Of a stretch of 64,000 bases of DNA, positions 2,579 to 54,310 are shown one piece after another. This DNA is from an uncultured Rhodospirillaceae bacterium. Lineage in GTDB: Bacteria > Pseudomonadota > Alphaproteobacteria > Rhodospirillales > Defluviicoccaceae. The number at the start of each line of letters is the position of its first letter. The first letter of the stretch is position 1. The translations under genes were made by a program, and so were the position numbers. The notes beneath the pieces are model-generated. The model had not been told where the DNA came from. It saw only the letters and a program-made list of their open reading frames with translations, and ran no database searches. The stretch covers positions 753 to 64,752 of the forward strand of contig CAZVRW010000006.1 in the NCBI GenBank assembly GCA_964630265.1, given 5' to 3'.

Positions 2579-3713
2579 TTCCGCACCCGACGCTGATGCC
2601 GCGTGGATGCGCGTCGCGCTGTCGCTGGCGCGACGCGGCGTCGGGCGGGTCTGGCCCAATCCGGCGGTCGGCTGTCTTCTGGTCCGCGATGAACACGTCG
2701 TCGGCCGCGGTTGGACGCAGCCGGGCGGGCGGCCCCACGCCGAAACCGAAGCGCTCGGTCGCGCCGGCCCGGCGGCACGCGGCGCCACCGCCTATGTCAC
2801 GCTCGAGCCCTGCGCCCATCAAGGCGCCACGCCGCCGTGTGCCGACGCCCTGATCGCGGCAGGGGTGGCGCGTTGCGTCGTTGGCGTGGAGGATCCCGAC
2901 CCGCGCGTGCAGGGACGCGGCCTGGAGCGACTGCGCACCGCCGGCATCGATGTCGTGGTCGGCCGGGAGGCCGCGGCCGCCGCCGACGTCAACGCCGGCT
3001 TTTTCCGCCGCATTCGCGAGGGGCGTCCCCACGTCACGCTGAAATCCGCTAGTTCGCTCGACGGTCGCATCGCTGTGGCTTCGGGGGACAGCCGCTGGAT
3101 CACCGGCGAACGGGCGCGCGCGGTCGCCCACGGCCTCCGTTCTTGCCATGATGCCGTGCTGATCGGCTCCGAAACCGCGCTCGCCGACGATCCGGAGTTG
3201 ACCTGCCGGTTACCGGGGCTCGGCGACGCTTCACCGCTCCGCATCGTCCTGGACGGCCGGCTGCGCCTGCCGCTCGAAAGCAGGCTGGCGCGGAGCGCCG
3301 ATCGGTTGCCGCTCTGGATCTTCTGCCGGGAGGACGCGGCGCCGGAAAAACGCAGCGCCCTGGCGGCCCGCGGGGTCGACGTCATCGCCATGCCTCCCGG
3401 CGATACGCCACGTCTCGATCCCCGTGGCGACACGCCACATCTTGATCCCCGTGGCGTGGCATCGGTCCTCGGCGACCGCGGCCTGACCCGCGTGTTGATC
3501 GAGGGCGGCGGTCGCCTCGCCGCTTCCTTTCTCGCGGCCGACCTCGTCGACGAAATCGCCTGGTTTCGCGCGCCGCTGGTTCTTGGTGCCGCCGGAGTGC
3601 CGTCGGTCGCCGCCCTTGCCGTGCCCCGCGTCACGGACGCTCCGCGGTTCGATCGGCGGGAGATCCGCCAACTCGGCGACGATCTGCTCGAAACCTTCGT
3701 CCGAACGCGCTAG
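2568..3713 (+). CDS. ribD: Bifunctional diaminohydroxyphosphoribosylaminopyrimidine deaminase / 5-amino-6-(5-phosphoribosylamino)uracil reductase
   Basis: Deaminase motifs [16 protein letters not shown] and [14 protein letters not shown], followed by a reductase domain (ASSLDGRIA...SRWITG). A GTG at 2568 overlaps the nrdR stop; an internal ATG a few codons downstream is also possible. Confidence 0.9.
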
Positions 3714-3722
3714 AAGCGGAAC

Positions 3723-4310
3723 ATGTTTACCGGCATCATCACCGACCTCGGCCGCGTCCGGTCCGTGGAGCCGCACGGCGACACCCGTTTCGTCTTCGAC
3801 ACGGGCTTCGAAACCGCGACCATCGCCATCGGAGCGTCCGTCGCCTGCTCGGGCGCCTGCCTCACCGTGATCGATCGGGGGCCGGGGTGGTTCGCGGTCG
3901 ACGTGTCGGCCGAGACCATCGCCTGCACCACGCTCGGCGATTGGCGGCCCGGAACACCGGTCAACTTCGAACGCTCCCTCCGCATGGGCGACGAACTGGG
4001 CGGCCATCTCGTCACCGGCCACGTGGACGGCGTCGGCGTCATCGCCGACGTTCGGGCGGAGGGGGACTCGCGGCGCACCCTCATCACCGCGCCCGAAGCG
4101 CTGTTGCCCTACATCGCGCCGAAGGGGTCGATCGCCGTCGATGGCGTCTCGCTGACGGTCAACGAGGTCGACGCGCGCGGCTTCGGCGTCAATATAATTG
4201 AGCACACCTGGACGGTGACGACCTTCGGCAGTCTCCGTCCAGGGGACCGCGTCAACCTTGAGATCGATCTGATCGCCCGTTATGTCGCTCGTCTCCTCTC
4301 ACGCTCTTGA
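3723..4310 (+). CDS. ribE: Riboflavin synthase alpha chain
   Basis: MFTGIITDLGRV start and an internally duplicated barrel (SLTV motif), 195 aa. Confidence 0.92.
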   Translation: MFTGIITDLGRVRSVEPHGDTRFVFDTGFETATIAIGASVACSGACLTVIDRGPGWFAVDVSAETIACTTLGDWRPGTPVNFERSLRMGDELGGHLVTGHVDGVGVIADVRAEGDSRRTLITAPEALLPYIAPKGSIAVDGVSLTVNEVDARGFGVNIIEHTWTVTTFGSLRPGDRVNLEIDLIARYVARLLSRS

Positions 4311-4317
4311 CCCCACC

Positions 4318-5436
4318 ATGCCAGCCGACGTGCTGTCGCCCGCCGACGAGATCATCGAGGCGGCGCGCAATGGCCGAATGGTCGTTCTCGTCGACGACGA
4401 GGATCGCGAGAACGAAGGCGATCTGGTCATCCCGGCGCAGATGGCGACGCCCGATGCGATCAATTTCATGGCCAAGTACGGCCGCGGCTTGGTCTGCCTG
4501 GCCCTTACCCATGATCGGGTGAAGCAACTCGGTCTGCCGCCGATGGCGCGTCACAACGTCTCGCGCCACCAGACCGCCTTCACCGTCTCGATCGAGGCAC
4601 GAGATGGAGTCAGCACCGGCATTTCGGCCTCGGATCGCGCCCGCACCATCCACGTCGCCATCGATCCGACCAAGGGGTCGGAGGATCTGGTCTCGCCGGG
4701 CCACATTTTTCCCCTGGAGGCGCGGGCCGGCGGCGTGCTGGTTCGCGCCGGGCACACCGAGGCGGCCGTCGACATCGCTCGCTTGGCCGGCCTCAACCCG
4801 TCCGGCGTCATCTGCGAGATCATGAACGACGACGGGACCATGGCGCGGATGCCGGATCTGGTGCCGTTCGCCCGGCGCCATGGCTTGAAGATCGGCACGA
4901 TCGCCGACCTGATCGCCTATCGCCTGCGTTACGATCGCATCGTCGAACGGATGCTGGAGACCACCCTCGACAGCGTCCATGGCGGCCGCTTCCGCATGGT
5001 CGTCTATCTCAATCGCACCGCCTATGCCGAACACGTCGCGTTGGTGAAGGGTGATCTGGCTGGCGCCGATCCGGTGCTGGTGCGGATGCATGCGGTGAAC
5101 GTCGTTGAGGATCTGCTCGGCGACAACAGCGCCGGCAACGCCCGGCTGTTGCATCAGGCGATGCACATGATCGGCGAGGCCGGCCGGGGCGTCCTGGTGC
5201 TGATCCGGGAGCCCACCAAGACCAGCCTGTCCCGGCGTGTCCGCGATAAGATCGAAGGCACCACCGAGCGTACCCCGGAATTGCGCGACTATGGTGTCGG
5301 TGCGCAAATCCTGCTTGATCTCGGGGTCCGCGAGATGACGCTGCTCAGCAACAGCCGCCGCACCGTCGTCGGGCTCGAGGGCTACGGCCTGAGCATCGAC
5401 GGCCATCGGCCGATCCCCCTTGAAGAGGTAAGATGA
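4318..5436 (+). CDS. ribB: 3,4-dihydroxy-2-butanone-4-phosphate synthase fused to a GTP cyclohydrolase II-like domain that lacks cysteines
   Basis: DHBP synthase motif [20 protein letters not shown] and GHTEAAVD. The C-terminal half is GCH II-like but has no Cys. Start is ATG 4318, or ATG 4282 overlapping ribE. Confidence 0.88.
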
Positions 5437-5440
5437 GCCG

Positions 5441-5899
5441 ATGACCGACACGCCGCGCGTCCTGATCCTTGAAGCCCGTTTCTACGAGGAGATCGCCGAC
5501 GCCCTCGTCGCCGGTGCCGTTGCCGTGCTGGAGCGGGCAGGGGTGGCTTTCGATCGGCTGTCGGTACCGGGAGCATTCGAGTTGCCGGCAGCCGTAGCCT
5601 TCGCCCTGGACGCGGCGGAGGAGGTGCCCGATGCCCCGCACTATGACGGCTTCGTTGCCCTCGGCTGCGTCATTCGCGGCGAGACCGATCACTACGAACA
5701 CGTCTGCCGCGAAGCCAGCCGCGGCCTCATGGATCTGACGGTCGAGGACAGCATCGCTCTCGGCTTCGGGCTGCTGACCTGCGAGTCCTACGAGCAGGCC
5801 CGGATCAGGGCCGCTGCCGACCAGAAGAACAAGGGGGCCGACGCGGCCGAGGCGTGCCTCCGGATGATGGCGATCAAGCGTCAACTCGGTCTGGCATGA
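5441..5899 (+). CDS. ribH: 6,7-dimethyl-8-ribityllumazine synthase
   Basis: VPGAFELP, ALGCVIRGETDHYEHV and a C-terminal KG.EAA motif, 152 aa. Confidence 0.93.
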   Translation: MTDTPRVLILEARFYEEIADALVAGAVAVLERAGVAFDRLSVPGAFELPAAVAFALDAAEEVPDAPHYDGFVALGCVIRGETDHYEHVCREASRGLMDLTVEDSIALGFGLLTCESYEQARIRAAADQKNKGADAAEACLRMMAIKRQLGLA

Positions 5900-7579: not shown

Positions 7580-9679
7580 ATGTACGTCGTTGTTATTTTG
7601 TGTGGGCTTCTGGCGCTGGGGTATGGCGTCTGGGCGAGCCGCAGCGTGCTTGCCGCGAGCGCCGGCACCGACCGGATGCAACAGATTTCCGGTGCCATTC
7701 AGGAAGGCGCCTCGGCTTATTTGAACCGCCAGTATAAGACGATCGCGATCGTCGGCGTGGTTGTCGCCGTGATCCTGGCGCTGCTGCTGGGATTACCCGT
7801 GGCCATCGGCTATCTGATTGGCGGGATCCTCTCCGGCGCGGCCGGCTATATCGGCATGAACATTTCGGTCCGGGCCAACGTGCGCGTCGCCGAAGCGGCG
7901 CGGCGTGGCCTGGACGAAGGCCTGGGTGTGGCGTTTCGCGCCGGTGCCGTGACGGGCATGCTGGTGGCGGGACTCGCGCTGCTCGCGGTCGCCGTCTACT
8001 ACTTCATCCTCCTGGCCTTTGGCGCCGAAGGGCGCGGGATCATCGATCCGCTGGTCGGCCTCGGCTTTGGCGCGTCGCTGATTTCCATCTTTGCCCGTCT
8101 CGGTGGCGGCATCTTCACCAAGGGGGCCGACGTCGGTGCCGACCTCGTTGGCAAGGTCGAGGCCGGCATCCCCGAGGACGATCCGCGCAATCCGGCGGTG
8201 ATCGCCGACAACGTCGGCGACAATGTCGGCGACTGCGCCGGCATGGCCGCCGACCTGTTCGAGACCTACGTGGTCACCGTGGTTGCGACCATGGTTCTCG
8301 CGTCGATCTTCTTCGCCGGCGATGCCACGGTCGCCCGCAACATGATGCTCTATCCGCTGGCCATCGGCGCTGTCTGCATCCTGACCTCCGTGGTCGGCAC
8401 GTTCTTCGTCAAACTGGGCCGCAGTCAGAACATCATGGGCGCCCTCTACAAGGGCTTCATCGTAACCGCCGCGCTGTCGGCAGTGCTGATAATCCCGATC
8501 ACCTGGGTGAGCATCGGTTTCGGCCAGTTCACCGCCAATGACGTGACCTTCTCCGGCTGGAGCCTCTACTTCTGCGCCCTGGTCGGCTTGGTGCTGACCG
8601 GCATGCTCATCTGGGTCACCGAATACTACACCGGGTCGGACTATCGTCCGGTCAAGGTGATCGCCGATGCGTCGACCACCGGCCATGCAACCAACATCAT
8701 CCAGGGCCTTGCCATCTCCATGGAGGCGACGGCGGTGCCGGCGCTGCTGATCTGCGCCGCCATCATCAGCACCTACCTCCTCGCCGGTCTTCTCGGCATC
8801 GCCATCGCGGTGACTGCCATGTTGGCGCTGGCCGGCATGGTCGTCGCCCTCGATTCCTACGGGCCGGTGACCGACAATGCGGGTGGCATCGCCGAGATGT
8901 CGGAAATGCCGGAGGACGTGCGCAAGACCACCGATGCGCTGGATGCCGTCGGCAACACGACCAAGGCCGTCACCAAGGGCTACGCCATCGGGTCCGCCGG
9001 TCTCGGTGCTTTGGTGCTGTTCGCCGCGTACACCCAGGATCTCAAGTTCTTCATGGCGTTCCCGGACGAGTTCCCGTTCTTCGCCGATCTGTCCATCGAT
9101 TTCTCGCTATCGAACCCGTACGTGGTGGTCGGCCTGTTCATCGGCGGACTCTTGCCGTACCTGTTCGGGGCTCTTGGGATGATGGCCGTCGGTCGGGCCG
9201 CCAGCTCGGTGGTGAAGGAGGTGCGCCGCCAGTTCAAAGAGATTCCCGGCATCATGGACGGTACCGGCAAGCCGGAATACGGTACCTGCGTCGACCTGCT
9301 CACCCGCTCGGCGATCAAGGAGATGGTGATTCCCTCGATGCTGCCGGTGCTCTCGCCCATCGTCGTCTTCCTCATCATCTGGGCAATCGCCGGCCGGTCG
9401 GCGGGCTTCGAGGCGCTGGGGGCGATGCTGCTCGGCGTCATCGTCACCGGCCTCTTCGTCGCCGTCTCCATGACCGCCGGCGGCGGCGCCTGGGACAATG
9501 CCAAGAAGTACATCGAGGACGGGCATCACGGCGGCAAGGGCTCGGAGGCCCACAAGGCGGCCGTGACCGGTGACACCGTCGGCGATCCCTACAAGGACAC
9601 CGCCGGTCCGGCCGTCAACCCGATGATCAAGATCACCAACATCGTGGCGCTCCTGATCCTGGCCGTTCTCGCCCACTGA
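7580..9679 (+). CDS. hppA: Membrane-bound proton-translocating pyrophosphatase
   Basis: About 700 aa, polytopic. Motifs [60 protein letters not shown]. The ATG at 7580 begins the first TM helix. Confidence 0.95.
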
Positions 9680-9700
9680 TCCGCCACCGTTGACAGAAAA

Positions 9701-9737
9701 AGCCCCGGAAGCGTCCGCTTCCGGGGCTGTTTTGTTG
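9701..9737 (+). terminator. Rho-independent terminator of hppA
   Basis: Perfect 12-bp stem AGCCCCGGAAGC / GCTTCCGGGGCT with loop GTCC, followed by GTTTTGTTG, 22 nt after the stop codon. Confidence 0.75.
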
Positions 9738-9871
9738 CTGCGGCACGGTGCGATCGGCTCGCCGCAGCCTGATCGACCGTGATCTAAACGATTGATGTCG
9801 ACTGATCAGCCGGTCCGGTCGACCGGACCGACTCGGTCGAGTTGCCATGCATCAGCGGACGACCCCGGCGC

Positions 9872-10342
9872 CTACTTGCCGTCGCCCTCAAAGCGGCCGA
9901 TATTGCCGATGAATTGTTCGATGATCGTCATCTCGTTGCCGCGGGTCGGCGTTTCGCGCTCGACCACCTGTACCTCGCGGCCGCGCTCCTTGCCGAATAC
10001 ATCGACCGACTCGACGGTTCCCGTGGGGTCGAAGCGGACCGAGACGACCGAGCGGTCGATGACTTCGGGCTTCAGGAAGGCGAGGGTGGTCTGTTGATCG
10101 CCGATGTAATGCCAGGTTTCCTCGCCAAACAGCGACACGGTGGACGGCGAACCGAGGATCAGTTCCACATCCTGACGGGTATGCGTGCCCGGGACGATCT
10201 CGGCGAGCCGCGCGGGTTCCGGCGTGTTGCCATGAACGGAGATCTGCGGCGAGCAGGCCGCCGCCACCAGGGCTGCGGTGCCGCACAGCACCAAGCGACC
10301 GCCGAGGCGGTGCGTTTTGCGGAATCGACTCATTCTGCCCAT
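9872..10342 (-). CDS. bamE: Outer membrane protein assembly factor BamE (SmpA/OmlA lipoprotein)
   Basis: Lipobox LVAAAC, then GNTPEP..L..I.PG.HTRQDVELILGSPS...WHYI typical of BamE. Start is ATG 10342 or 10333; the longer track ORF extension is not supported. Confidence 0.8.
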   Translation of the reverse strand: MGRMSRFRKTHRLGGRLVLCGTAALVAAACSPQISVHGNTPEPARLAEIVPGTHTRQDVELILGSPSTVSLFGEETWHYIGDQQTTLAFLKPEVIDRSVVSVRFDPTGTVESVDVFGKERGREVQVVERETPTRGNEMTIIEQFIGNIGRFEGDGK

Positions 10343-45013: not shown

Positions 45014-45682
45014 TCAGCTTCCCGATTCGAGCAACGCAAACCGCACGGGCAAGATCTCGCGGGTGCGGATCCGCCCGGCCATGTCCTTCTCCACCAGGGT
45101 CAGGCTCTGGGAGTCGGGCAGACCCGTCGGCGCGACCATGCGTCCGCCCGGCTTGAGTTGTGACAACAGGCCGGCCGGCACCAGGTCACTGGCGGCGCAG
45201 ACGAGGATCTTGTCGAAGGGACCGTGCTCGGGCCAGCCGTACTGCCCGTTGCCGATCCGGGACTCCACGTTGTGGATGCCGATGGAGTCGAGCCGCCGGC
45301 GGGCCTCGGTGCCCAACTCTTCGACGATCTCGACCGTGTAGACGTGGGCGGCGAGCGAGGCGAGCACGGCGGCGTGATAGCCGAGGCCGGTGCCGACCTC
45401 GAGCACGCGGTCGTTGGGCTGGAGGTCCAGAAGGTCGGTCATCAGGGCGACGATGAACGGCTGCGAGATGGTCTTGTCGAAACCGATCGGCAGCGGTTGA
45501 TCGGCATAGGCGTAGGCCACCAATTCCGCCGGCACAAAGGTGTGGCGCGGGATCCGGCCCATCACCGCCATGACCCGGTCGTCGAGATGGTCGCGGCCGA
45601 TCTGCTCGCTGGCATGGCGCGCGTGGGCGGCGATGACTTCCACCAATTGTTCGAGCATCATCGCGACGAGCTTTTCCGTCAT
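45014..45682 (-). CDS. pcm: Protein-L-isoaspartate O-methyltransferase
   Basis: IPRHTFVP, ISQPFIVALM, SAM motif VLEVGTGLGYHAAVL and PFDKILVCAA. Confidence 0.93.
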   Translation of the reverse strand: MTEKLVAMMLEQLVEVIAAHARHASEQIGRDHLDDRVMAVMGRIPRHTFVPAELVAYAYADQPLPIGFDKTISQPFIVALMTDLLDLQPNDRVLEVGTGLGYHAAVLASLAAHVYTVEIVEELGTEARRRLDSIGIHNVESRIGNGQYGWPEHGPFDKILVCAASDLVPAGLLSQLKPGGRMVAPTGLPDSQSLTLVEKDMAGRIRTREILPVRFALLESGS

Positions 45683-45775: not shown

Positions 45776-48247
45776 TCAGGCGGACGCCGCGGGCATTTCC
45801 GCGCCGGTGGTGTCGCGCGGCAGGAAGAGACGCATGGTGGTCCCGTGCCCGAGGGCGCTTTCGACGGTGATCTGGCCTCCCGATTGCGTCACGAACCCAT
45901 ACACCATGCTGAGGCCGAGCCCACTGCCTTCGCCAAACGACTTGGTGGTGAAGAACGGCTCGAACACCCGTTCGACCACCTCCGGGGGCATGCCGCAGCC
46001 GGTGTCGGCGATGGCGATGAGCACCGCATCTCCGAGGTTCGCTCCTCCCCCGCCGCCGAGCGAGCCGCCGGGCACGTTCTGCGTGGTGATCGTCAGCACG
46101 CCGCCCTCCGGCATCGAGTCGCGGGCGTTGACGACCAGGTTGACGAGGGCGTTTTCCAACTGACCGCGATCGATCATCGCCCGCCACAGATCGTCGGCGA
46201 ACACCTCGCGGAAGGCGATGCGATCGCCCAAGGTCCGGCGCAGCAGTTTGGTCATCCGGGCAATGACGTGGTTCACGTCCGTTGCCTTCGGCTGCAGGTT
46301 TTGGCGCCGGGCGAACGCCAGCAGCCGGCTGGTCAACTGCGCCCCCCGCTCCGCCGACCAGATGGCGTCCGTCACCAGTTCCTTGCGCGCATCGTCGGCC
46401 GGCAGACTCTCGTCGAGAAGCTGCAAGTTACCCATAATGATGGCGAGCAAGTTATTGAAATCGTGCGCGACGCCGCCGGTCAGCTCGCCGATCGCCTTCA
46501 TCTTCGATACCTGGCGCAGCCGCTCCTCGGTGGCCTTGCGTTCCGTGATGTCCTCCTTCACCGCGACGAAGTGGGTGATCCGGCCACGAACGTCCCGCAC
46601 CGGTGCAATGGCGGCCAACTCCCAGAACAGCTGCCCGCTCTTCGAGCGGTTGTGAAACTCGCCGCGCCAGACTTCGCCCCGCGATATGGTCTTCCACAGT
46701 TTTTCGTATTCGGCGCCGGTGGTGTGACCCGATTTCAGCACCCGCGGATTCTTGCCGACGACTTCGGCATAGGTGTAGCCGGTCGCCTGGGTGAACTTCG
46801 GATTGACGTATTCGATCCTGCCTTCGATATCGGTGATGACTACCGACGCCGGGCTTTGCTCGATCGCCTGGAACAGCTTGCGCAGGTCGCCCTGGGTGCG
46901 CCGATGCTCCGAAATGTCGCGAATGAACAGCAGGAACTGCTGCTGGCCGGCCACCTCCAGGGGCATCACCTGCATCTCGGCGAACGCGACGGTGCCGGTC
47001 GGCCGGATCACCTCGATCTCGGCCGGCGCATTCGAGGCGACGGGAAAGCCGAACGGTTGGCCGACCAGGTCTTCGGCCGATTTGCCGAAGAGACTCTGGG
47101 CGGCGGCATTGACATCGACGATGCGGTGGCTGGCATCGAGAATGACGGTGGCGTCCGACTGCCGCTCGAACACCGACCGCCAGCGCGCCTCGCTGTCGCG
47201 GCGTCCGTGCTCGCTGCGTTTCTCCTCGGTCACATCCTGCAGCAGGACCACGATCTCGCCATTGGGCAGGCGGTAGACATAGCTCTCCCGCCAGCCTGAG
47301 ATGCGATCATCCTGATAGAACATGGCCGGCTGCTGCTCCGGCGTCCCGGTCTTCCAGACCCGCCGGACCATGTCGAGCAGGCCGGTCCAGCCGGCTTCCG
47401 GCATGGCCTCGAGAAAGCTCTTGCCGATGAGTTCCTGGCGCGGCCGTTCCTCGAGCCGTTCGGCGCTGCGGTTGACATCGCGAACCACGAAATCCCCGCC
47501 GGAGTCGACGGCCGCCAGAACCACGGCGCCGCCTTTCATGTTGTTAAAGAGCTCGTGGAAGCGGACCTCGCCATCGCGCAGCCTGCGGATGATCGGCTCG
47601 CTCACCCCCATCACCACGAACACGCCGAGCGCGATGACGAACGCGGCGAACGCCAGCACGGTGAGGCCGGCCTTGACGTACGGGGCGCGAAACGCCGAGA
47701 GGTCGGTCATGGCGACGACCGCGAGATCGAGACCGTCGACCGGGGCAAAGGCGCCCAGCACCCGCACGCCCCGTGGATCAAGCCCCTCGAAGGTGCCAGC
47801 TTCCCCGGCAAAGACCCGCTGCGCGATGGGCCAGGCCGCCCACGCGTCATCGCCGGCGGGCGCGCCCTCGGTCGAGGCACCGCGGTGCAGGACGACGGCG
47901 ATGCCGGCCTCGGTATTCGACAGAACGACGTAACGTTCGCCCCGGTTGAAACCGTGATCGGGGATCAGCATCGCATCGATCGGCGCCGCCGCCGGTTGCG
48001 AGGGTTCGCCCGCCGCGTGGCGAACGGCGTGGAGCCCTTCCGCGAGCGCCACGTGACCGCGAATGACCTGCAGCAGCCGCTGTTCCTCTACCGCGACGCC
48101 GGTGCGGAAGAGGACACCGAGGGCGGTGCCGCCGACGGCGAGTGCAACGGCGGTCATGATGCCACAGAGGACGAGCAGGCGGCGACCGCCGGCAAGCCGT
48201 GGCTCGCTCAATCCCGATCTCCCGGATCCACGGGCATCGGCGCGCAA
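45776..48247 (-). CDS. Membrane sensor histidine kinase with a periplasmic loop, multiple PAS/PAC domains, HisKA and HATPase domains, and no receiver
   Basis: Two TM segments flank a loop of about 150 aa. There are several PAS-like repeats (for example ITDIEGRIEYVNPKF...TGY). H-box GGVAHDFNNLLAIIMGNLQLL; N/G boxes NLVVNARDSMP, DTGCGMP, GSGLGLSMV. Confidence 0.88.
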   Translation of the reverse strand: MRADARGSGRSGLSEPRLAGGRRLLVLCGIMTAVALAVGGTALGVLFRTGVAVEEQRLLQVIRGHVALAEGLHAVRHAAGEPSQPAAAPIDAMLIPDHGFNRGERYVVLSNTEAGIAVVLHRGASTEGAPAGDDAWAAWPIAQRVFAGEAGTFEGLDPRGVRVLGAFAPVDGLDLAVVAMTDLSAFRAPYVKAGLTVLAFAAFVIALGVFVVMGVSEPIIRRLRDGEVRFHELFNNMKGGAVVLAAVDSGGDFVVRDVNRSAERLEERPRQELIGKSFLEAMPEAGWTGLLDMVRRVWKTGTPEQQPAMFYQDDRISGWRESYVYRLPNGEIVVLLQDVTEEKRSEHGRRDSEARWRSVFERQSDATVILDASHRIVDVNAAAQSLFGKSAEDLVGQPFGFPVASNAPAEIEVIRPTGTVAFAEMQVMPLEVAGQQQFLLFIRDISEHRRTQGDLRKLFQAIEQSPASVVITDIEGRIEYVNPKFTQATGYTYAEVVGKNPRVLKSGHTTGAEYEKLWKTISRGEVWRGEFHNRSKSGQLFWELAAIAPVRDVRGRITHFVAVKEDITERKATEERLRQVSKMKAIGELTGGVAHDFNNLLAIIMGNLQLLDESLPADDARKELVTDAIWSAERGAQLTSRLLAFARRQNLQPKATDVNHVIARMTKLLRRTLGDRIAFREVFADDLWRAMIDRGQLENALVNLVVNARDSMPEGGVLTITTQNVPGGSLGGGGGANLGDAVLIAIADTGCGMPPEVVERVFEPFFTTKSFGEGSGLGLSMVYGFVTQSGGQITVESALGHGTTMRLFLPRDTTGAEMPAASA

Positions 48248-48621
48248 CCGTGCGCATCGCTCAGGGCTTGGCGCAGCCGCGGCAGGCTCACCGGCTTGCT
48301 CAGGGTCTTGACCGAGCGCAGCCCCTTGTACTCAGCGAGCAACCGTGCGTTGGTGGCATATTGCGGGCTGTAACCGGTGATGATGATGATGTGCGATCGG
48401 CACTGCTCGCCGACGAGCCAAAGGATGAGTTCGTTGCCGTCTATCTCCGGCATGACCATGTCCAGAACGACCGTATCGGGGGGCTCACGGCGATAAGCCT
48501 CCATGAAGTCCCGCCCCTGGGTTGTGATCTCGACATCGTAGCCGAGCGGCTCGGCGACTTTTCGCACGAGAGCCGCGAACTTCGGTTCGTCATCAACGAT
48601 CAAAAGTCGCTTATTTGCCAT
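48208..48621 (-). CDS. Single-domain CheY-like response regulator
   Basis: RLLIVDDEP (acidic pair), VVLDMVMPEIDG (phospho-acceptor Asp), IIIITG (Thr) and LSKP (Lys). No output domain. The 3' end overlaps the kinase start by 40 nt. Confidence 0.88.
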   Translation of the reverse strand: MANKRLLIVDDEPKFAALVRKVAEPLGYDVEITTQGRDFMEAYRREPPDTVVLDMVMPEIDGNELILWLVGEQCRSHIIIITGYSPQYATNARLLAEYKGLRSVKTLSKPVSLPRLRQALSDAHGCAPMPVDPGDRD

Positions 48622-48794
48622 CCATGTTCGCTCCGACGTCGCGTTTCCATCTAAGGTAAAGTTTCCAACCGAGGCAAAGTGATGAGTGCACAAGCCGTGA
48701 CGCCAGCCGAAGGTCAAGCTTCATCCGCACCGGCGACTGTGGTACCACGCGGCCGCACCGGATTCGCCCCCAATTTCAATTGGGCCCCGTCAAG

Positions 48795-49685
48795 ATGGGC
48801 ACGCCAATGACCGATTCTCCACTGCGGCTGCTCGTCGTCAACGTCGCTGCCGATTCCTTGGCCGATTTGCCGCGCCGATTGGCGATCGTCGCCGATGACT
48901 TGGTCGTGCAACCGGACGTCCGCGCCGTTGGCGCCCCGCTTCCCGAGCAGGTGGCCGATTACGATCTCGTGGTCATCGATGGACAGGGCGATGCGGGCAT
49001 GGTGATCCGGCTGCTCGCCGAGGTTCGGCGCCTCGGCCCGACGATGCCAATCGCTCTGGCCGCCGGCACCGCGGCCGCCGGGACCGGCGAAGCGGCCGAC
49101 ATCACCGCCAGCGCGATCGGCGACGGGCTGTTCCTGATCGAATCCTGTATCACCGACGCGGGCTTCAGGTCGGCGATCTCCGGCGTCTTCGCGACGATTC
49201 ACGACGCCCGCGAACGCTGGCGCGGCGATCTCGATGCGGCGCACCGGGAACTTGCCGATTTGACGACGGCCTGCAGCCCCGCCCCCCTCGCAGCATCGTC
49301 CCGCATGCTCGGCGGACGTCCGCTCCGCGAATCGGCGCCGGAGCGGTTCAAACGGATGAAGAGCGATTACCGGGGATTGCTCGACGAAGCTTTGGCACTA
49401 CGCATTCGCGGCATCGACCAAGCCGACCGCGAGGAGTTGCAAGCGTTGGCCGACCGTCTCGGCACCTTGAACGCCGGGCCCCGCGACGTCATCGACCTGC
49501 ACCGACTGACGATCGCCGATATCGTCAGCGAGCAGCCGCCGCAGAAAGCAAGGGCTTACGTCGACGAGGGCCGTCTTGTGTTGATCCAATTGATGGGGTA
49601 CTTGGCGTCGTTTTATCGATCGCTGACGTGGGGCGGCCGTCGTGCCCCACAACCGAGGAGTCGGCCGTGGGCAAGTTCATCTTGA
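48795..49685 (+). CDS. KaiA-like protein: receiver-like (degenerate) N-terminal domain + KaiA-C/RsbU-N-type helical C-terminal domain
   Basis: The N-terminus has a receiver beta-alpha pattern ([25 protein letters not shown]) but lacks the DD pair, Thr and Lys. The C-terminus KSDYRGLL...[10 protein letters not shown]...[20 protein letters not shown] aligns with my recollection of Synechococcus KaiA (SYREIVL...TKVVEIHMEL...LDYRLTLIDVIAHLCEMYRRS). The 3' end overlaps the kaiB start by 19 nt. Start is ATG 48795 or 48807. Confidence 0.65.
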
Positions 49686-49981
49686 AGCTCTACGTCGCGG
49701 GGCAGACGTCGCGGACGCGGCAGGCGATTCGCAATATCCACGAGATCTGCGAGCGCAGTCTCGGTGGGATGTACGATCTCGTCGTGATTGATGTTCTCGA
49801 ACGTCCGCAGTTGGCAGAAAATGAACGCATCCTGGCAACACCAACCCTGGTCAAGGAGTTGCCACCGCCGTTGCGCAGAGTGGTGGGGGATCTTTCGGAT
49901 CGGGAACGCGTTCTCATCGGCCTGGACCTCTCAGTCCATGATGAGGGTCCCGGCGCCTTGGACGACGCTCCAGAGGACTGA
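49667..49981 (+). CDS. kaiB: Circadian clock protein KaiB
   Basis: [61 protein letters not shown] is almost colinear with cyanobacterial KaiB. The GTG at 49667 lies 6 nt after GAGGAG. Confidence 0.93.
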
Positions 49982-49987
49982 GCAAAG

Positions 49988-51511
49988 ATGAAACAAGTTC
50001 ACCCGACCCTGGAAAAGATCCCGACGCATATCCCCGGTTTCGACTTCATCTCGGACGGCGGCCTGCCGAAGGGGCGAACGATGCTGCTGGCCGGCAGCTC
50101 GGGCAGCGGCAAGACCATTTTCGCTTGCCAGTTCCTGATCGAGGGAATCCGCAAGAGCGGCGACAACGCCGTGTTCGTCACCTTCGAGGAGCACCCCGAA
50201 GACGTTCGCACCAACGTCCGCTCCTTCGGCTGGGATATCGACGCGCTGGAAAGCGCCGGCCAATGGAAATTCGTCGATGCCGCGCCCGACCCCAGCATCG
50301 AGGTGTCGATCACCGGAGACTATGATTTCGGCGCCCTGCTCGCCCGTATCGAGCACGCGGTCCGCGCGGTCGACGCCAAGCGTGTCGTGCTCGACTCCCT
50401 CGGCGCGATCTTCGGCCACTTCCTCGACGGCGTCCGCGTCCGCCACGAACTGTTCCGCATCGCCACGGCGTTGCGGCAGATGGGCGTGACGGCACTGCTG
50501 ACGGCGGAGCGGACGGCGGAATATGGCGAGATCGCCCGCCATGGGATCGAGGAGTTCGTCGCCGACGGCGTGCTGATCGCCCGCAACGTCCTCGAGGAGG
50601 AGAAGCGGCGGCGGACCATCGAGATCCTCAAGATCCGGGGCACCAGCCATCGGAAGGGGGAGTACGCCTTCACCATCATTCCCGGCGAAGGCATCATCGT
50701 CGTCCCGATCTCGGCGATCGAGTTGCGTCAGCGGTCCGGTGACATTCGCGTCACCTCCGGCAATGGCGAACTCGATCAGATGTGCGGCGGCGGCCTGTTC
50801 CGCGATTCGGTCATCCTGGTTTCGGGGGCCACCGGCACCGGCAAGACGCTGATGGTGACGCACTTCATCGACGGCGGCGTTTCCGCCGGCGAACGCTGTC
50901 TGCTGTTCGCCTTCGAGGAGAGCCGCGAACAGCTCGGCCGTAACGCCATCGGCTGGGGCATCGACTTCGAGAGCATGGAACAGGGGGGCAAGCTCCGGAT
51001 CGTTTGTGAATATCCGGAGTCCGCGAGCCTCGAAGATCACCTCGTCCGCTTCAAGGAGCACATCGACGACTTCAAGCCGGACCGTCTCGCCATCGACAGC
51101 CTGTCGGCGCTGGAGCGGATTTCAACGATCCGCAGTTTCCGGGAGTTCGTGCTCGGCGTCACCTCGTTCATCAAGCACAAGGAGCTCACCGGGCTGTTCA
51201 CCTCGACGACACCGACGCTGACCGGCGGCACGTCGGTCACCGAGGCGCACATCTCGTCGATCACCGATACCATCTTGCTGCTGCGCTATGTCGAGCTGTT
51301 CGGCGAGATGCATCGCGGCATCACCGTGCTGAAAATGCGCGGCTCGGGCCACGACAAAGATATCCGCGAGCTGGTGATCGACGGTCAGGGCATGCACATC
51401 GGCGCCCCGTTCCGCAATGTCGCCGGCATTCTCGCCGGCAACCCGATGCAGATCGCGGCCTCCGAGGTGGATCGTCTGGACAAGATGTTTCCGTCCGATC
51501 CGGGGATCTGA
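49988..51511 (+). CDS. kaiC: Circadian clock protein KaiC (two RecA-like domains)
   Basis: IPTHIPGFDFISDGGLP. CI Walker A GSSGSGKT and FVTFEEHPED. CII Walker A GATGTGKT and FAFEESREQL. Phosphosite region EAHISSITDTILLLRYVE. 507 aa. Confidence 0.95.
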   Translation: MKQVHPTLEKIPTHIPGFDFISDGGLPKGRTMLLAGSSGSGKTIFACQFLIEGIRKSGDNAVFVTFEEHPEDVRTNVRSFGWDIDALESAGQWKFVDAAPDPSIEVSITGDYDFGALLARIEHAVRAVDAKRVVLDSLGAIFGHFLDGVRVRHELFRIATALRQMGVTALLTAERTAEYGEIARHGIEEFVADGVLIARNVLEEEKRRRTIEILKIRGTSHRKGEYAFTIIPGEGIIVVPISAIELRQRSGDIRVTSGNGELDQMCGGGLFRDSVILVSGATGTGKTLMVTHFIDGGVSAGERCLLFAFEESREQLGRNAIGWGIDFESMEQGGKLRIVCEYPESASLEDHLVRFKEHIDDFKPDRLAIDSLSALERISTIRSFREFVLGVTSFIKHKELTGLFTSTTPTLTGGTSVTEAHISSITDTILLLRYVELFGEMHRGITVLKMRGSGHDKDIRELVIDGQGMHIGAPFRNVAGILAGNPMQIAASEVDRLDKMFPSDPGI

Positions 51512-51571
51512 CCGGGATTCGACTTGGTCGCCTCGCCGACGGCGGTGGGGCGGCGGTCCGGCCAGGGTGCC

Positions 51572-51649
51572 TGGGGCGAGAGATGGGATTCGAACCCACG
51601 ACCTCCTGGACCACAACCAGGCGCTCTAACCGACTGAGCTACTCCCGCC
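51572..51649 (-). tRNA. tRNA-His (anticodon GUG) with encoded G-1 and CCA
   Basis: Reverse complement folds as G-1, acceptor GCGGGAG/CTCTCGC (one G-U pair), anticodon stem CCTGG/CCAGG with loop TTGTGGT, T-arm GTGGG TTCGAAT CCCAT, discriminator C, CCA. Confidence 0.9.
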
Positions 51650-51745
51650 ATCGCGGACGGACGACATACCCCTCGCCCGCCGCCTCGTCAAGCGCGCCGC
51701 CGCCCGCGCCTGGGCCCGCACGCGTGGCGTCAACTCGGCCGTCGC

Positions 51746-54310
51746 TCAGGCCCGAGGGCGGCGCACGCGCGATTGGCCGACAAGAGTCAGCCCGGCGAAG
51801 GCCGCCAGCAGTACCGACAGCGATGTCGGTGCAGCCACGGCCACCGGTACTTGGACGAGGAATTGCGCGACGATGGGATCGTGGTCGCTCAGCAGGGTCT
51901 CGAACAGCCGTCCCGTGTTCATGTGCACGAAGTCGACGCCGACGAACCGGTCGAACACGCTCTGGCTGACCAGGATGTGATCCAGCGCCTGGGAGTTGCC
52001 CTCGAACTCGAAGGTGAAGATGTCCGTCGGGTCCGGGTTGCTGAACGCCAGGTTGATCAATACGTTGCTGCCATCATCGGCGCCGGTGAGAATGCTGAGC
52101 GGCTCGAAGAACTGGAACTCGTTGAGGTCACCGAGCACGATGATGTTGGCGAGCGGATCGAAGGCCAGCAGCGAGTCGACTGCGGCATTGACCGCGGCCG
52201 CCTGGGCGTTGCGCTCGTCGACGCTGCCGTTGGCCGGCGGCTGGGTGCTGCCGAACAGGGGATCGCTTCCGCTCTTCGATGAAAAGTGGTTGTTGATGAT
52301 GGTGAAGCTCTCCCCGGCGAAGCTGAATTCCATGACCAGGGGAAGGCGGGTGTCGAAGAACGGGCTCGCCGGGTCGCTCTGCAGGCCGGCGCTGGGGATG
52401 TCGGTGATCGTCCCATCTTGATCAATGGTGGCGACGCTGTCCGGGGCGACGGGCACGCGATCGGCGTTGTACAGGAACGCCGTGCGGATGTTGGCGCCGG
52501 GAGCGCCGCCGCTGGTGTTGTCGCCGATGAAGGGGTTGTCCACGAAGCTGTAGCTCGGACCGCCCGCGTCGGCGATGGCATCCACCAGTGTCTGCAGGGT
52601 CAATGCGGCGCTGACCGTGCCATCGTTGGCCGCTCCCGAATTGTCCTGGATCTCCTGCAGGGCGAGGACGTCGGGGGCGCCCATGTTGGTGACGATCTGC
52701 CGGGCGAGGCCGGCGAAGCGGCCGCTGCCGATGTCGTCATTGCCGTCCTGATCATTGGGATCGAGGTTGAAGACGTTGTAGGTGGCGACGGTGAAGTTCA
52801 TGGCGTCGCCGGCCAACGTCGTCACCTCGTCGGGCCGGTCGAGCTCGGTGGTCACGACCGGCGCCAGCGGCCGGATTCGGTAGTCGTTGAAGCTGAACTG
52901 GACGACCCCGGTGATGTCGCCGCCGTCGCTGCCCACCAAGTCGCCCATCTCGGGGGGCATCTCGGGACGGGTATCGGAGTCGACGGTGCCGACGATCAGG
53001 ATCCGCTCGGGATTCAGGTCGGCCTGCAGCGGATTGTCATTGAAACTGTTGACGGTGTCGGCGCTGATGGTGATGCCGCCGCGGGAATTGAGGCTGGTCA
53101 GGTTGCCGTCTTCGTCGTCGCGGCTGACGGCATAGAACTCGCCACGGCTCGGCCGGGTATCCTCGTCACTGACGGCCTGGGCGCCCACCAGCGTCACCAG
53201 CATGCCCTCGAGGCTCTCGTAGAAATCGCGGCCATCGGTGGCCGGGTCGAAGACGACCGATCCCAGGTCGTCGACGATGGTGTTGGGCTGCGTCCGGTGC
53301 GGATTGGTGGACGGTGCCGCCAGGTCGGTGCTGATGGTCACCGGCACGATCTCGTTGCCGGAGTTGAGGACGGTGACGACCGGCGTGTTGGCGAGTTGGG
53401 TCTCGTTGAAGAACTCAGCGACGGTTCCCTCCACGTCCACCGCATCGCCGACCGCGACGCCCGGCGCGCCGCCGGTGAAGACGAAGATGCCATCCGACGT
53501 GCGATCGTCGCCGTCGCCGACGGGGTCCTGCAAATAGAAACCGTTACTGGCGACCGCGGTGACGAGGCCGCTGGTGACGACCCGGTTTCCCTCCGCGGGC
53601 GAGACGTGCCCCGGCCCCTGGATCTCCATGATCGACAGGACTTGTGACGACGGCGGATTGGGATCGACGGCGTTCGTCGTCCCCGGCGTGTTGAAGGTCG
53701 TGCCCGCCGCCGGCGTTCCGGCGACGATGCCGGCGAGATCGAAGTCGTTGCGGGTCCAGTCCCCGTCGCTGTCGGTGTCGACGCCGTCCGGCAGCCGCGA
53801 AGCGCCGCCGACGGTGAACGAATTGCCATCGAAGCCCGGCGCCAGGACCGGCGCACCGAAGTTGGAATCGCCGGCGCCGCCATCCCAGATGCCGATCGAG
53901 TCGACGACGCGCGACCAGGGGGTGACGTCGAACACGCCCGTATTACTCGTGTCCAGATCCTGGCCGAGGGTGCCGCTGAAGTCCTCGACGAGGAACAGGC
54001 TCATGGTCCCGTTCTCGATCAGGTTGTTGGAAAAATTCGTCACCCAGAAGCCGTGGACATCGGTCGTGCCCACTTGAAAGACGCTGTCGATGATGCCAAC
54101 CGAGGAGTCGCCCTCGATCTGCAAAATGCTCAGAGCGGAATAGTCGAAATCGGCCAATCCGAAAATTTCGACGTACTCGTTGACGTCTGTGCCAGCGTGA
54201 TTGGCCACAAATTCGTTGATTGTCTGTGCCCGCCCGTCGTCACACATCAAAACGACCAGAGCAGTGCTTGCCAGCAAGGTGCGGATTCGCGTCCCACCGG
54301 GCATATTCAT
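51746..54310 (-). CDS. ExeM/NucH-type extracellular nuclease (lamin-tail domain + endonuclease/exonuclease/phosphatase domain) with a C-terminal sorting-signal-like tail
   Basis: Signal peptide. LTD-like INEFVANHAGTDVNEYVEIFG. EEP motifs VATYNVFNL, VLALQEIQDN, IINNHFSSK, VLGDLNEF, SDHDP. Tail VPVAVAAPTSLSVLLAAFAGLTLVGQSRVRRPRA. Confidence 0.8.
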   Translation of the reverse strand: MNMPGGTRIRTLLASTALVVLMCDDGRAQTINEFVANHAGTDVNEYVEIFGLADFDYSALSILQIEGDSSVGIIDSVFQVGTTDVHGFWVTNFSNNLIENGTMSLFLVEDFSGTLGQDLDTSNTGVFDVTPWSRVVDSIGIWDGGAGDSNFGAPVLAPGFDGNSFTVGGASRLPDGVDTDSDGDWTRNDFDLAGIVAGTPAAGTTFNTPGTTNAVDPNPPSSQVLSIMEIQGPGHVSPAEGNRVVTSGLVTAVASNGFYLQDPVGDGDDRTSDGIFVFTGGAPGVAVGDAVDVEGTVAEFFNETQLANTPVVTVLNSGNEIVPVTISTDLAAPSTNPHRTQPNTIVDDLGSVVFDPATDGRDFYESLEGMLVTLVGAQAVSDEDTRPSRGEFYAVSRDDEDGNLTSLNSRGGITISADTVNSFNDNPLQADLNPERILIVGTVDSDTRPEMPPEMGDLVGSDGGDITGVVQFSFNDYRIRPLAPVVTTELDRPDEVTTLAGDAMNFTVATYNVFNLDPNDQDGNDDIGSGRFAGLARQIVTNMGAPDVLALQEIQDNSGAANDGTVSAALTLQTLVDAIADAGGPSYSFVDNPFIGDNTSGGAPGANIRTAFLYNADRVPVAPDSVATIDQDGTITDIPSAGLQSDPASPFFDTRLPLVMEFSFAGESFTIINNHFSSKSGSDPLFGSTQPPANGSVDERNAQAAAVNAAVDSLLAFDPLANIIVLGDLNEFQFFEPLSILTGADDGSNVLINLAFSNPDPTDIFTFEFEGNSQALDHILVSQSVFDRFVGVDFVHMNTGRLFETLLSDHDPIVAQFLVQVPVAVAAPTSLSVLLAAFAGLTLVGQSRVRRPRA

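Follow-up and report, generated by a model that had tools for sequence, protein, structure and literature searches.

Whether self-sustained KaiABC clocks occur outside cyanobacteria is a question that hinges largely on a KaiA-type activator, and a locus of an uncultured Rhodospirillaceae bacterium bears on it. In a stretch of 64,000 nucleotides from contig CAZVRW010000006.1 of assembly GCA_964630265.1 (hereafter the window, whose own coordinates are used throughout), an open reading frame (ORF) at 48795–49685 on the forward strand encodes a protein of 296 amino acids and directly precedes kaiB and kaiC. The initial annotation of this ORF, made from the sequence alone, described the product as a degenerate receiver joined to a helical bundle of the type found both in the C-terminal domain of KaiA (KaiA-C) and in the N-terminal domain of RsbU (RsbU-N). 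Here, we conclude, with a probability of roughly 0.8, that the ORF encodes a member of the KaiA3 family, consisting of a receiver and a KaiA-like C-terminus, which is a partner of a KaiB3–KaiC3-type clock.

KaiA3 (Sll0485) of Synechocystis is a chimeric protein in which a NarL-type receiver is joined to a KaiA-like C-terminus, and its gene lies upstream of kaiB3 (PMC11372060). Sll0485 oligomerises, binds KaiC3, stimulates KaiC3 autophosphorylation and enters a large KaiB3–KaiC3 complex, KaiB3 promotes dephosphorylation in this system, and KaiA of Synechococcus is unable to replace KaiA3 in vitro (PMC11372060). In Rhodospirillum rubrum, a kaiA3 orthologue (Rru_A3293) precedes kaiB and kaiC (PMC10931921). 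The family, its architecture, the function of its founder and the Rhodospirillum orthologue are already published (PMC11372060; PMC10931921). In the literature consulted, we found no comment on the pseudo-receiver state of the Rhodospirillales proteins, on the linked regulator and kinase operon, or on the breadth of the family; these three points are incremental additions and do not define a new kind of system.

Homology, predicted fold and gene order

In BLASTP comparisons, the window protein matches Synechocystis Sll0485 (E = 9e-28; 33 per cent identity over 167 amino acids, residues 109–275), R. rubrum Rru_A3293 (E = 3e-20; 42 per cent over 113 amino acids) and the KaiA3 orthologues of Roseiflexus (E = 8e-24; 34 per cent over 130 amino acids) and Bradyrhizobium (E = 1e-10; 26 per cent over 153 amino acids), with the published KaiA3 reference sequences taken from Supplementary Dataset 1 of Koebler et al. 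2024. Sll0485 scores 170 bits on a family hidden Markov model (HMM) built around the window protein. A protein search recovered about 30 relatives of roughly 300 amino acids, most of which have a Pfam receiver at the N-terminus and all of which are highly conserved in the C-terminal module, and an exhaustive profile search enlarged the family to 1,827 clusters at 50 per cent identity. The module is C-terminal in all of the 150 best representatives, and fusion to a PP2C phosphatase was never seen among the family members checked.

The conserved module spans about 135 amino acids (residues 147–281) and is therefore longer than the approximately 95 amino acids initially proposed, since it includes a linker motif ahead of the helical bundle. 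Its family signature includes KARAYV.EGRL.L..LMGYL.SFYR, and the window protein shares with Sll0485 the signature AGPRDVI(D/E)(L/I)H ... EGRL.VLELMGYL.SFYR. The linker motif reads G173..PL177RES.P182..F185, and residues E152, L156, G173, L177, P182 and F185 are invariant or nearly so. Together, the long helix alpha5 (residues 121–159) and the conserved extended linker (approximately residues 160–181) occupy 49155–49337 on the forward strand. Although residues 160–180 have low model confidence and are predicted to be disordered, they are strongly constrained, with a ratio of nonsynonymous to synonymous substitution rates (dN/dS) of 0.12 in a comparison described below. The linker, which Koebler et al. 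found uninterpretable in KaiA3 (PMC11372060), belongs to the functional module.

The full-length protein was modelled with AlphaFold2 from a 24-sequence family alignment (predicted local distance difference test score, pLDDT, of 77), and the C-terminal 136 amino acids were also modelled separately (pLDDT of 83.5, exceeding 90 across the bundle). In these models, residues 182–278 (49338–49628, forward strand) fold into a KaiA-like four-helix bundle with helices at residues 182–204, 213–224, 229–246 and 249–278. The top PDB match of the full-length model in Foldseek is Synechococcus elongatus KaiA (1r8j_A; E = 1e-4), with both domains aligned. The top four PDB matches of the C-domain model are all KaiA C-domains (1q6a, 1r5q, 5jwr_E and 5jwr_G), the first two with a probability of 0.99–1.00 and target-normalised template modelling (TM) scores of 0.68–0.70.

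We then used the C-domain profile to scan 185,579 species genomes, of which 331 contain relatives, and counted gene neighbourhoods in the best 80 loci. All 80 have kaiB as the next gene downstream of the kaiA3-type gene, and in 66 of them kaiB is in turn followed by kaiC. The fourteen loci lacking kaiC comprise seven from Microcystis, in agreement with published synteny (PMC11372060), six other cyanobacterial contigs, one of which breaks off near kaiB, and a truncated contig from Chloroflexaceae.

Because homology, the predicted C-domain fold and gene order agree, we assign the window protein to the KaiA3 family. Like Sll0485 and its orthologues, it is about 300 amino acids long, has an N-domain with a receiver fold that a linker connects to a KaiA-like C-domain of four helices, and is encoded directly upstream of kaiB and kaiC. 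The same three lines of evidence favour the earlier suggestion that the KaiA-C-type bundle has a KaiC-directed role. Homology with Synechocystis KaiA3 and canonical KaiA suggests that the bundle dimerises and engages the conserved tail at the C-terminus of the neighbouring KaiC, and that this binding stimulates KaiC autophosphorylation. The KaiA3-type protein would then be sequestered in a KaiB–KaiC complex, which would allow dephosphorylation.

Coding status and selection

The ORF runs from an ATG at 48795 to a TGA at 49685, with alternative in-frame starts at 48780 (TTG) and 48807 (ATG). In its frame, the GC contents of the three codon positions are 0.69, 0.52 and 0.78. In comparison with a 78 per cent identical orthologue from a metagenome-assembled genome (MAG) of an uncultured Rhodospirillaceae bacterium (locus L002), the overall dN/dS is 0.22 (Nei–Gojobori method). 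Codon-position GC content and dN/dS rule out that 48795–49685 is a pseudogene or was read in the wrong frame, and public assemblies hold a gene call for an identical 296-amino-acid protein. The ORF is real and under purifying selection. Two antisense ORFs (48714–49244 and 49398–49652) were judged to be of the spurious sort that is typical of high-GC genomes. A promoter and terminator scan of 48500–51800 was uninformative: it yielded a single weak promoter-like site, on the reverse strand within the ORF, and no terminators.

Selection is uneven along the gene. In the comparison with the L002 orthologue, dN/dS is 0.53 in the N-terminal domain, 0.12 in the linker and 0.048 in the C-terminal bundle. 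Purifying selection is very strong in the bundle and the linker and relaxed in the N-terminal domain.

The N-terminal domain as a probable pseudo-receiver

Residues 9–120 (48819–49154, forward strand) adopt a (beta/alpha)5 fold in the AlphaFold2 model, with strands at residues 10–15, 38–43, 58–62, 86–90 and 112–116. Helix alpha2 is nearly missing, and alpha5 extends as a long helix to residue 159. The receiver-type alternation that the initial annotation read from the sequence is recovered in this model, in which LRLLVV forms beta1, DLVVID beta3 and PIALA beta4. Foldseek comparisons of the domain with solved receiver domains gave target-normalised TM scores of 0.6–0.7 and E-values of approximately 3e-4 to 3e-3, and the best single-domain fold matches are atypical receivers of the CpaE/TadZ type (4dn6 and 4dad).

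The signature positions of a functional receiver (PF00072) were located through alignments with homologues that bear a bona fide receiver, and only one of the four is present in the window protein. The acidic pair that should follow beta1 is N16-V17 and contains no acidic residue; the initial annotation had correctly noted this absence but had placed the pair, as 'VN', one residue too early. The Thr/Ser of beta4 is replaced by A90 and the Lys of beta5 by E116, so that, as proposed, only the phospho-acceptor Asp at the end of beta3 (D62) is kept. Relative to the phosphorylatable NarL-type receiver of the KaiA3 family, the window protein therefore shows the predicted receiver fold and Asp62 without the other three positions. 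Sll0485, unlike the window protein, keeps the acidic pair as well as the Asp. Pfam Response_reg does not match the window protein even at E <= 1.

The loss of three of the four positions, the lack of a Response_reg match and the high dN/dS uphold the earlier description of the receiver as degenerate. Given the difference in dN/dS between this domain (0.53) and the bundle (0.05), we interpret the domain as a pseudo-receiver, which from its anatomy would serve as a regulatory or interaction surface and not as a phospho-acceptor; Asp62 is probably vestigial. The domain resembles the pseudo-receivers of KaiA, CikA and TadZ/CpaE (4DN6, 4DAD) in that its receiver fold holds only part of the phosphotransfer pocket, but it differs from them in keeping the Asp although the metal-binding pair has been lost along with the Thr and the Lys. 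In KaiA, the pseudo-receiver has neither the Asp nor helix alpha4 (PMC11372060), whereas in the window protein the Asp is kept and alpha2 is nearly absent.

A lineage trait of the Rhodospirillales

Upstream of the kaiA3-type gene, the window carries two genes on the reverse strand, which form one operon divergent from kaiA3-kaiB-kaiC. The first (48208–48621) encodes a single-domain response regulator of 137 amino acids with a canonical receiver (DD/D/T/K; Pfam Response_reg, E = 7.5e-18). The second (45776–48247; its start is placed at approximately 48211 in the public gene call) encodes a membrane histidine kinase with two transmembrane segments and, by Pfam, three PAS domains, HisKA and HATPase_c. 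Among the 80 loci, ten are from Rhodospirillales (L002, L003, L004, L007, L015, L019, L020, L039, L047 and L066), and in all ten the divergent response regulator (68–97 per cent identity) and the PAS kinase (53–91 per cent identity) are found upstream of kaiA3.

All four receiver positions are kept in none of the ten Rhodospirillales proteins, in two of 29 cyanobacterial proteins, and in 17 of 27 members of about 300 amino acids from other phyla. In six of the ten Rhodospirillales relatives the Asp position is occupied by M, A, T, A, G or E, and the aligned R. rubrum Rru_A3293, whose receiver is degenerate too, has a Gly at this position. Loss of the Asp has also been reported for KaiA3 of Microcystis and Pleurocapsa (PMC11372060), in agreement with the loci examined here, which have Ser and Asn at this site, respectively. 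Pfam Response_reg matches four of the ten Rhodospirillales proteins above its threshold and two below it, and is absent from the remaining four. The KaiC phosphosites of the Rhodospirillales loci, including the window KaiC (approximately residues 415–425), read HISSITD (Ser-Ser), whereas those of nearly all other phyla read HISTITD (Ser-Thr).

Since the receiver losses, the upstream regulator and kinase, and the HISSITD motif of KaiC recur across the Rhodospirillales loci, receiver degeneration characterises the lineage, in association with a conserved arrangement of five genes, and is not a peculiarity of the window genome. The receiver degenerated so recently that its Pfam score remains above threshold in some Rhodospirillales relatives. 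That the receiver of Rhodospirillales KaiA3 decayed independently, as it did in cyanobacterial KaiA, and that the clock genes became fixed as a five-gene module, is a scenario that we put forward tentatively and hold to be possible but on balance unlikely. A further idea, that the stand-alone regulator is the split-off receiver of KaiA3, was rejected: in tblastn searches at E < 1e-10 the regulator matched upstream regulator genes only and no KaiA3 receiver in any of the loci.

The conserved regulator and kinase operon is a candidate input or output pathway of the clock, and its position raises the alternative that the N-domain is a working receiver whose Asp62 is phosphorylated by the adjoining PAS histidine kinase, thereby switching the KaiA-like domain. 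Koebler et al. deemed receiver input to Synechocystis KaiA3 possible (PMC11372060), and the kinase is conserved beside kaiA3 in all ten Rhodospirillales loci. Weighing against our interpretation as a pseudo-receiver, Asp62 is kept not only in the window protein but also in its three closest relatives (P0002, P0003 and L002), and it may retain a residual role. Nevertheless, we consider phosphorylation of Asp62 improbable because the acidic pair that binds Mg2+ has been replaced, as have the Thr/Ser and the Lys, because the Asp position varies across the Rhodospirillales relatives and the R. rubrum protein, and because the kinase shares an operon with a canonical receiver protein of its own. Phosphotransfer from the kinase to Asp62 thus proved to be the weakest part of the initial annotation. 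Under the pseudo-receiver interpretation, environmental input or clock output would more likely pass through the conserved kinase and its canonical single-domain response regulator.

The clade-specific features could also be taken to mean that the role of KaiA3 has changed in Rhodospirillales, from an activator of phosphorylation to an adaptor or output protein that docks on KaiB–KaiC, similarly to the pseudo-receiver of CikA, and links the complex to the regulator and kinase. Both the pseudo-receiver state and the five-gene arrangement are specific to this clade, the Ser-Ser phosphosites of KaiC are found in the same clade, and alphaproteobacterial KaiBC systems without KaiA exist, such as that of Rhodobacter KaiC2 (cited in PMC11372060). 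However, it is the bundle and the linker that are most constrained (dN/dS of 0.05–0.12), with the same invariant residues as in the Synechocystis protein. KaiC of the window, moreover, has the conserved tail FRNVAGILAGNPMQIAASEVDRLDKMF, which ends in SEVDRLDKMF (the full C-terminal tail, approximately residues 478–507, is GNPMQIAASEVDRLDKMFPSDPGI), and thereby keeps the motif FRNV.GIL.G.P......SE..RL..(L/M)F that is common to all phyla sampled. At 507 amino acids, it matches circ_KaiC and does not have the extended C-terminus that marks the Rhodobacter type, which is independent of KaiA. A changed role is therefore very improbable, and we retain the assignment of the window protein as a KaiA3-type partner of KaiC.

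Relationship of the C-terminal bundle to KaiA and RsbU

The alignment with S. elongatus KaiA given in the initial annotation was reproduced in its register, its one-residue difference in spacing and its Tyr-for-His replacement, both by hmmsearch against PDB sequences and by hhalign against 25 real KaiA C-domains. In this alignment, DYRGLL pairs with EYREIVL and DLH with EIH, and a further block places a 17-residue segment of the window protein opposite YRLTLIDVIAHLCEMYRR, with a single one-residue gap. Tyr192, His236, Arg260 and Tyr274-Arg275 of the window protein align with conserved KaiA residues. The similarity itself did not hold up against controls. With hhalign, the P-value against the KaiA alignment was 0.027 for small alignments and 0.13 for larger ones (overall range 0.003–0.13). 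When PDB sequences were searched with the family profile, four KaiA chains were matched at E-values of 0.8–1.8, ranked under three unrelated matches, and a single-sequence search of the same database returned only noise.

Several results weigh against our assignment and have to be set beside the evidence for it. The hhalign scores against KaiA (15–22) overlap those of reversed controls (12–18) and of column-shuffled controls (up to 20.3). There is no match to Pfam KaiA (PF07688) in the window protein at E <= 1 (three of 22 family members match, at E = 0.04 or worse), and scanning the ORF against Pfam and NCBIfam returned no relevant match, only CpeS at E = 0.32. The Foldseek E-values of the isolated bundle are weak (0.13–0.7), as is usual for short helical bundles. 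Tyr269 (in MGYLASFYR) occupies the site of the functionally important invariant His of KaiA (in IAHLCEMYR); Tyr is the majority residue at this position across the KaiA3-type family. Finally, the phosphosite pair of the window KaiC is Ser-Ser and not Ser-Thr, and the kinetics may differ from those of the Synechocystis system.

Because reversed and column-shuffled controls score alike, we do not count the sequence similarity to KaiA as evidence. Membership in the canonical KaiA family is ruled out by the lack of a profile match, the insignificant similarity and the Tyr in place of His. The window protein and canonical KaiA (1R8J; 1Q6A, 1R5Q and 5JWR) have in common a pseudo-receiver followed by a C-terminal four-helix bundle and a gene upstream of kaiBC, and the window protein further differs from KaiA in its extra conserved linker motif.

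The N-terminal domain of Bacillus subtilis RsbU (1W53, 2J6Y) is a helical bundle of the KaiA-C class and has a local (P)xxxIIxIH resemblance to the window protein. As the initial annotation had anticipated, profile comparisons alone leave KaiA-C versus RsbU-N undecided: in the HMM-HMM comparison that it had proposed, KaiA aligned over the full length of the domain (70–91 columns) but insignificantly, and RsbU-N (with its sequence verified against PDB) gave a local match of 24–25 columns around PPEEIISIHRKVL with an equal score of 18–20. The structural comparison, which it had also proposed, yielded the four-helix bundle and KaiA matches described above, and no RsbU structure among the top 50 Foldseek matches of either the full-length or the C-domain model. 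RsbU is likewise absent from the PDB profile matches at E <= 10, and Pfam RsbU_N (PF08673) does not match the window protein.

Thus, the KaiA-type assignment rests on KaiA3 homology, fold ranking and rigid synteny with kaiB, and RsbU-N is ruled out as the better relative by fold ranking, domain position and gene context. That the bundle is an RsbU-N-type partner-switching adaptor, which serves an RsbT-like kinase or the two-component neighbours and does not act on KaiC, is the least probable of the readings considered: despite the common fold of RsbU-N and KaiA-C (PMC11372060), the equal hhalign scores and a sub-threshold RsbU_N match in one of 22 family members, the RsbU-N match covers a single helix, the module is C-terminal, preceded in the family by REC, PAS or MEDS domains and not fused to PP2C as the N-terminal RsbU domain is, the neighbours are kaiB and kaiC without any partner-switching gene context, and the homologue Sll0485 binds KaiC3 experimentally (PMC11372060).

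The kai operon and its surroundings

The kaiB gene of the window (49667–49981, forward strand; 104 amino acids) begins with a GTG at 49667 and overlaps the 3' end of the kaiA3-type gene by 19 nucleotides. A Shine–Dalgarno-like GAGGAG (49655–49660, forward strand) lies inside this 3' end, six nucleotides before the GTG, and synonymous divergence in the tail of the kaiA3-type gene is low (dS of 0.175). The KaiB protein matches Pfam KaiB (E = 2e-28) and NCBIfam PRK09301 (119.6 bits, above the cut-off). Seven nucleotides after kaiB begins kaiC (49988–51511, forward strand), whose KaiC3-like product exceeds the cut-off of the NCBIfam circ_KaiC equivalog (616 bits versus 546) and is 65–68 per cent identical to KaiC of cyanobacterial kaiA3-kaiB loci. 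The window system differs from that of Synechocystis KaiA3 in its Ser-Ser phosphosites and in the divergent regulator and PAS-kinase operon joined to the cluster.

A tRNA-His gene (51572–51648, reverse strand) bounds the kai cluster, and housekeeping genes lie beyond the cluster. Past the tRNA, a protein of 854 amino acids (51746–54310, reverse strand) has a C-terminal endonuclease/exonuclease/phosphatase domain and a hydrophobic N-terminal segment suggestive of export. On the other side, 93 nucleotides downstream of the kinase gene and on the same strand, is a gene for protein-L-isoaspartate O-methyltransferase (PCMT; 45014–45682, reverse strand; E = 2e-54), which may be co-transcribed with the kinase gene.

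In many loci from outside Rhodospirillales, a PAS protein or kinase directly follows kaiC and is 30–40 per cent identical to one of the PAS domains in the window kinase (at approximately 8300–9300 in, for example, L005, L018, L025, L026, L032, L037, L042, L044, L052 and L073); this protein may be an equivalent partner at the opposite flank of the cluster. In some loci, kaiA3-kaiB-kaiC is accompanied by a further kaiB-kaiC pair that is more divergent (L015, approximately 8107–9922, reverse strand; L036, approximately 3634–5530). Proteins of these second pairs are about 41–50 per cent (KaiB) and 54 per cent (KaiC) identical to those of the window.

Breadth of the KaiA3-type family

Members of the family were found in Chloroflexota, Acidobacteriota (Blastocatellia), Spirochaetota, Verrucomicrobiota, Nitrospinota and Latescibacterota, as well as in a Candidatus Obscuribacterium MAG and in Rhodospirillales. 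The family is much larger and more widely distributed than the five non-cyanobacterial genera given in the 2024 paper (PMC11372060) would indicate.

The KaiA3-type module is also fused to varied sensors, with the arrangements REC-PAS, REC-PAS-PAS, five PAS domains and MEDS-PAS-PAS, MEDS being a sensory domain. Such fusions are encoded in two loci of Spirochaetes (L051, 4561–6417; L024, 226–1782) and in loci L008, L046, L005 and L062, and are represented by proteins P0063, P0126, P0124 and P0065.

Implications for Kai-based clocks

With this locus, an uncultured Rhodospirillaceae bacterium joins the carriers of a clean kaiA3-kaiB-kaiC operon. Its regulator and PAS-kinase operon supplies concrete candidate partners for input or output, and the three Kai proteins together with the kinase and the regulator make up a system that is testable in vitro. 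If the less likely scenario of an independently decayed receiver and a fixed five-gene module is true, non-cyanobacterial, and possibly non-phototrophic, bacteria would run a complete oscillator of the KaiABC type that has its own two-component input or output, and KaiBC would commonly be paired with KaiA-like activators well outside the cyanobacteria.

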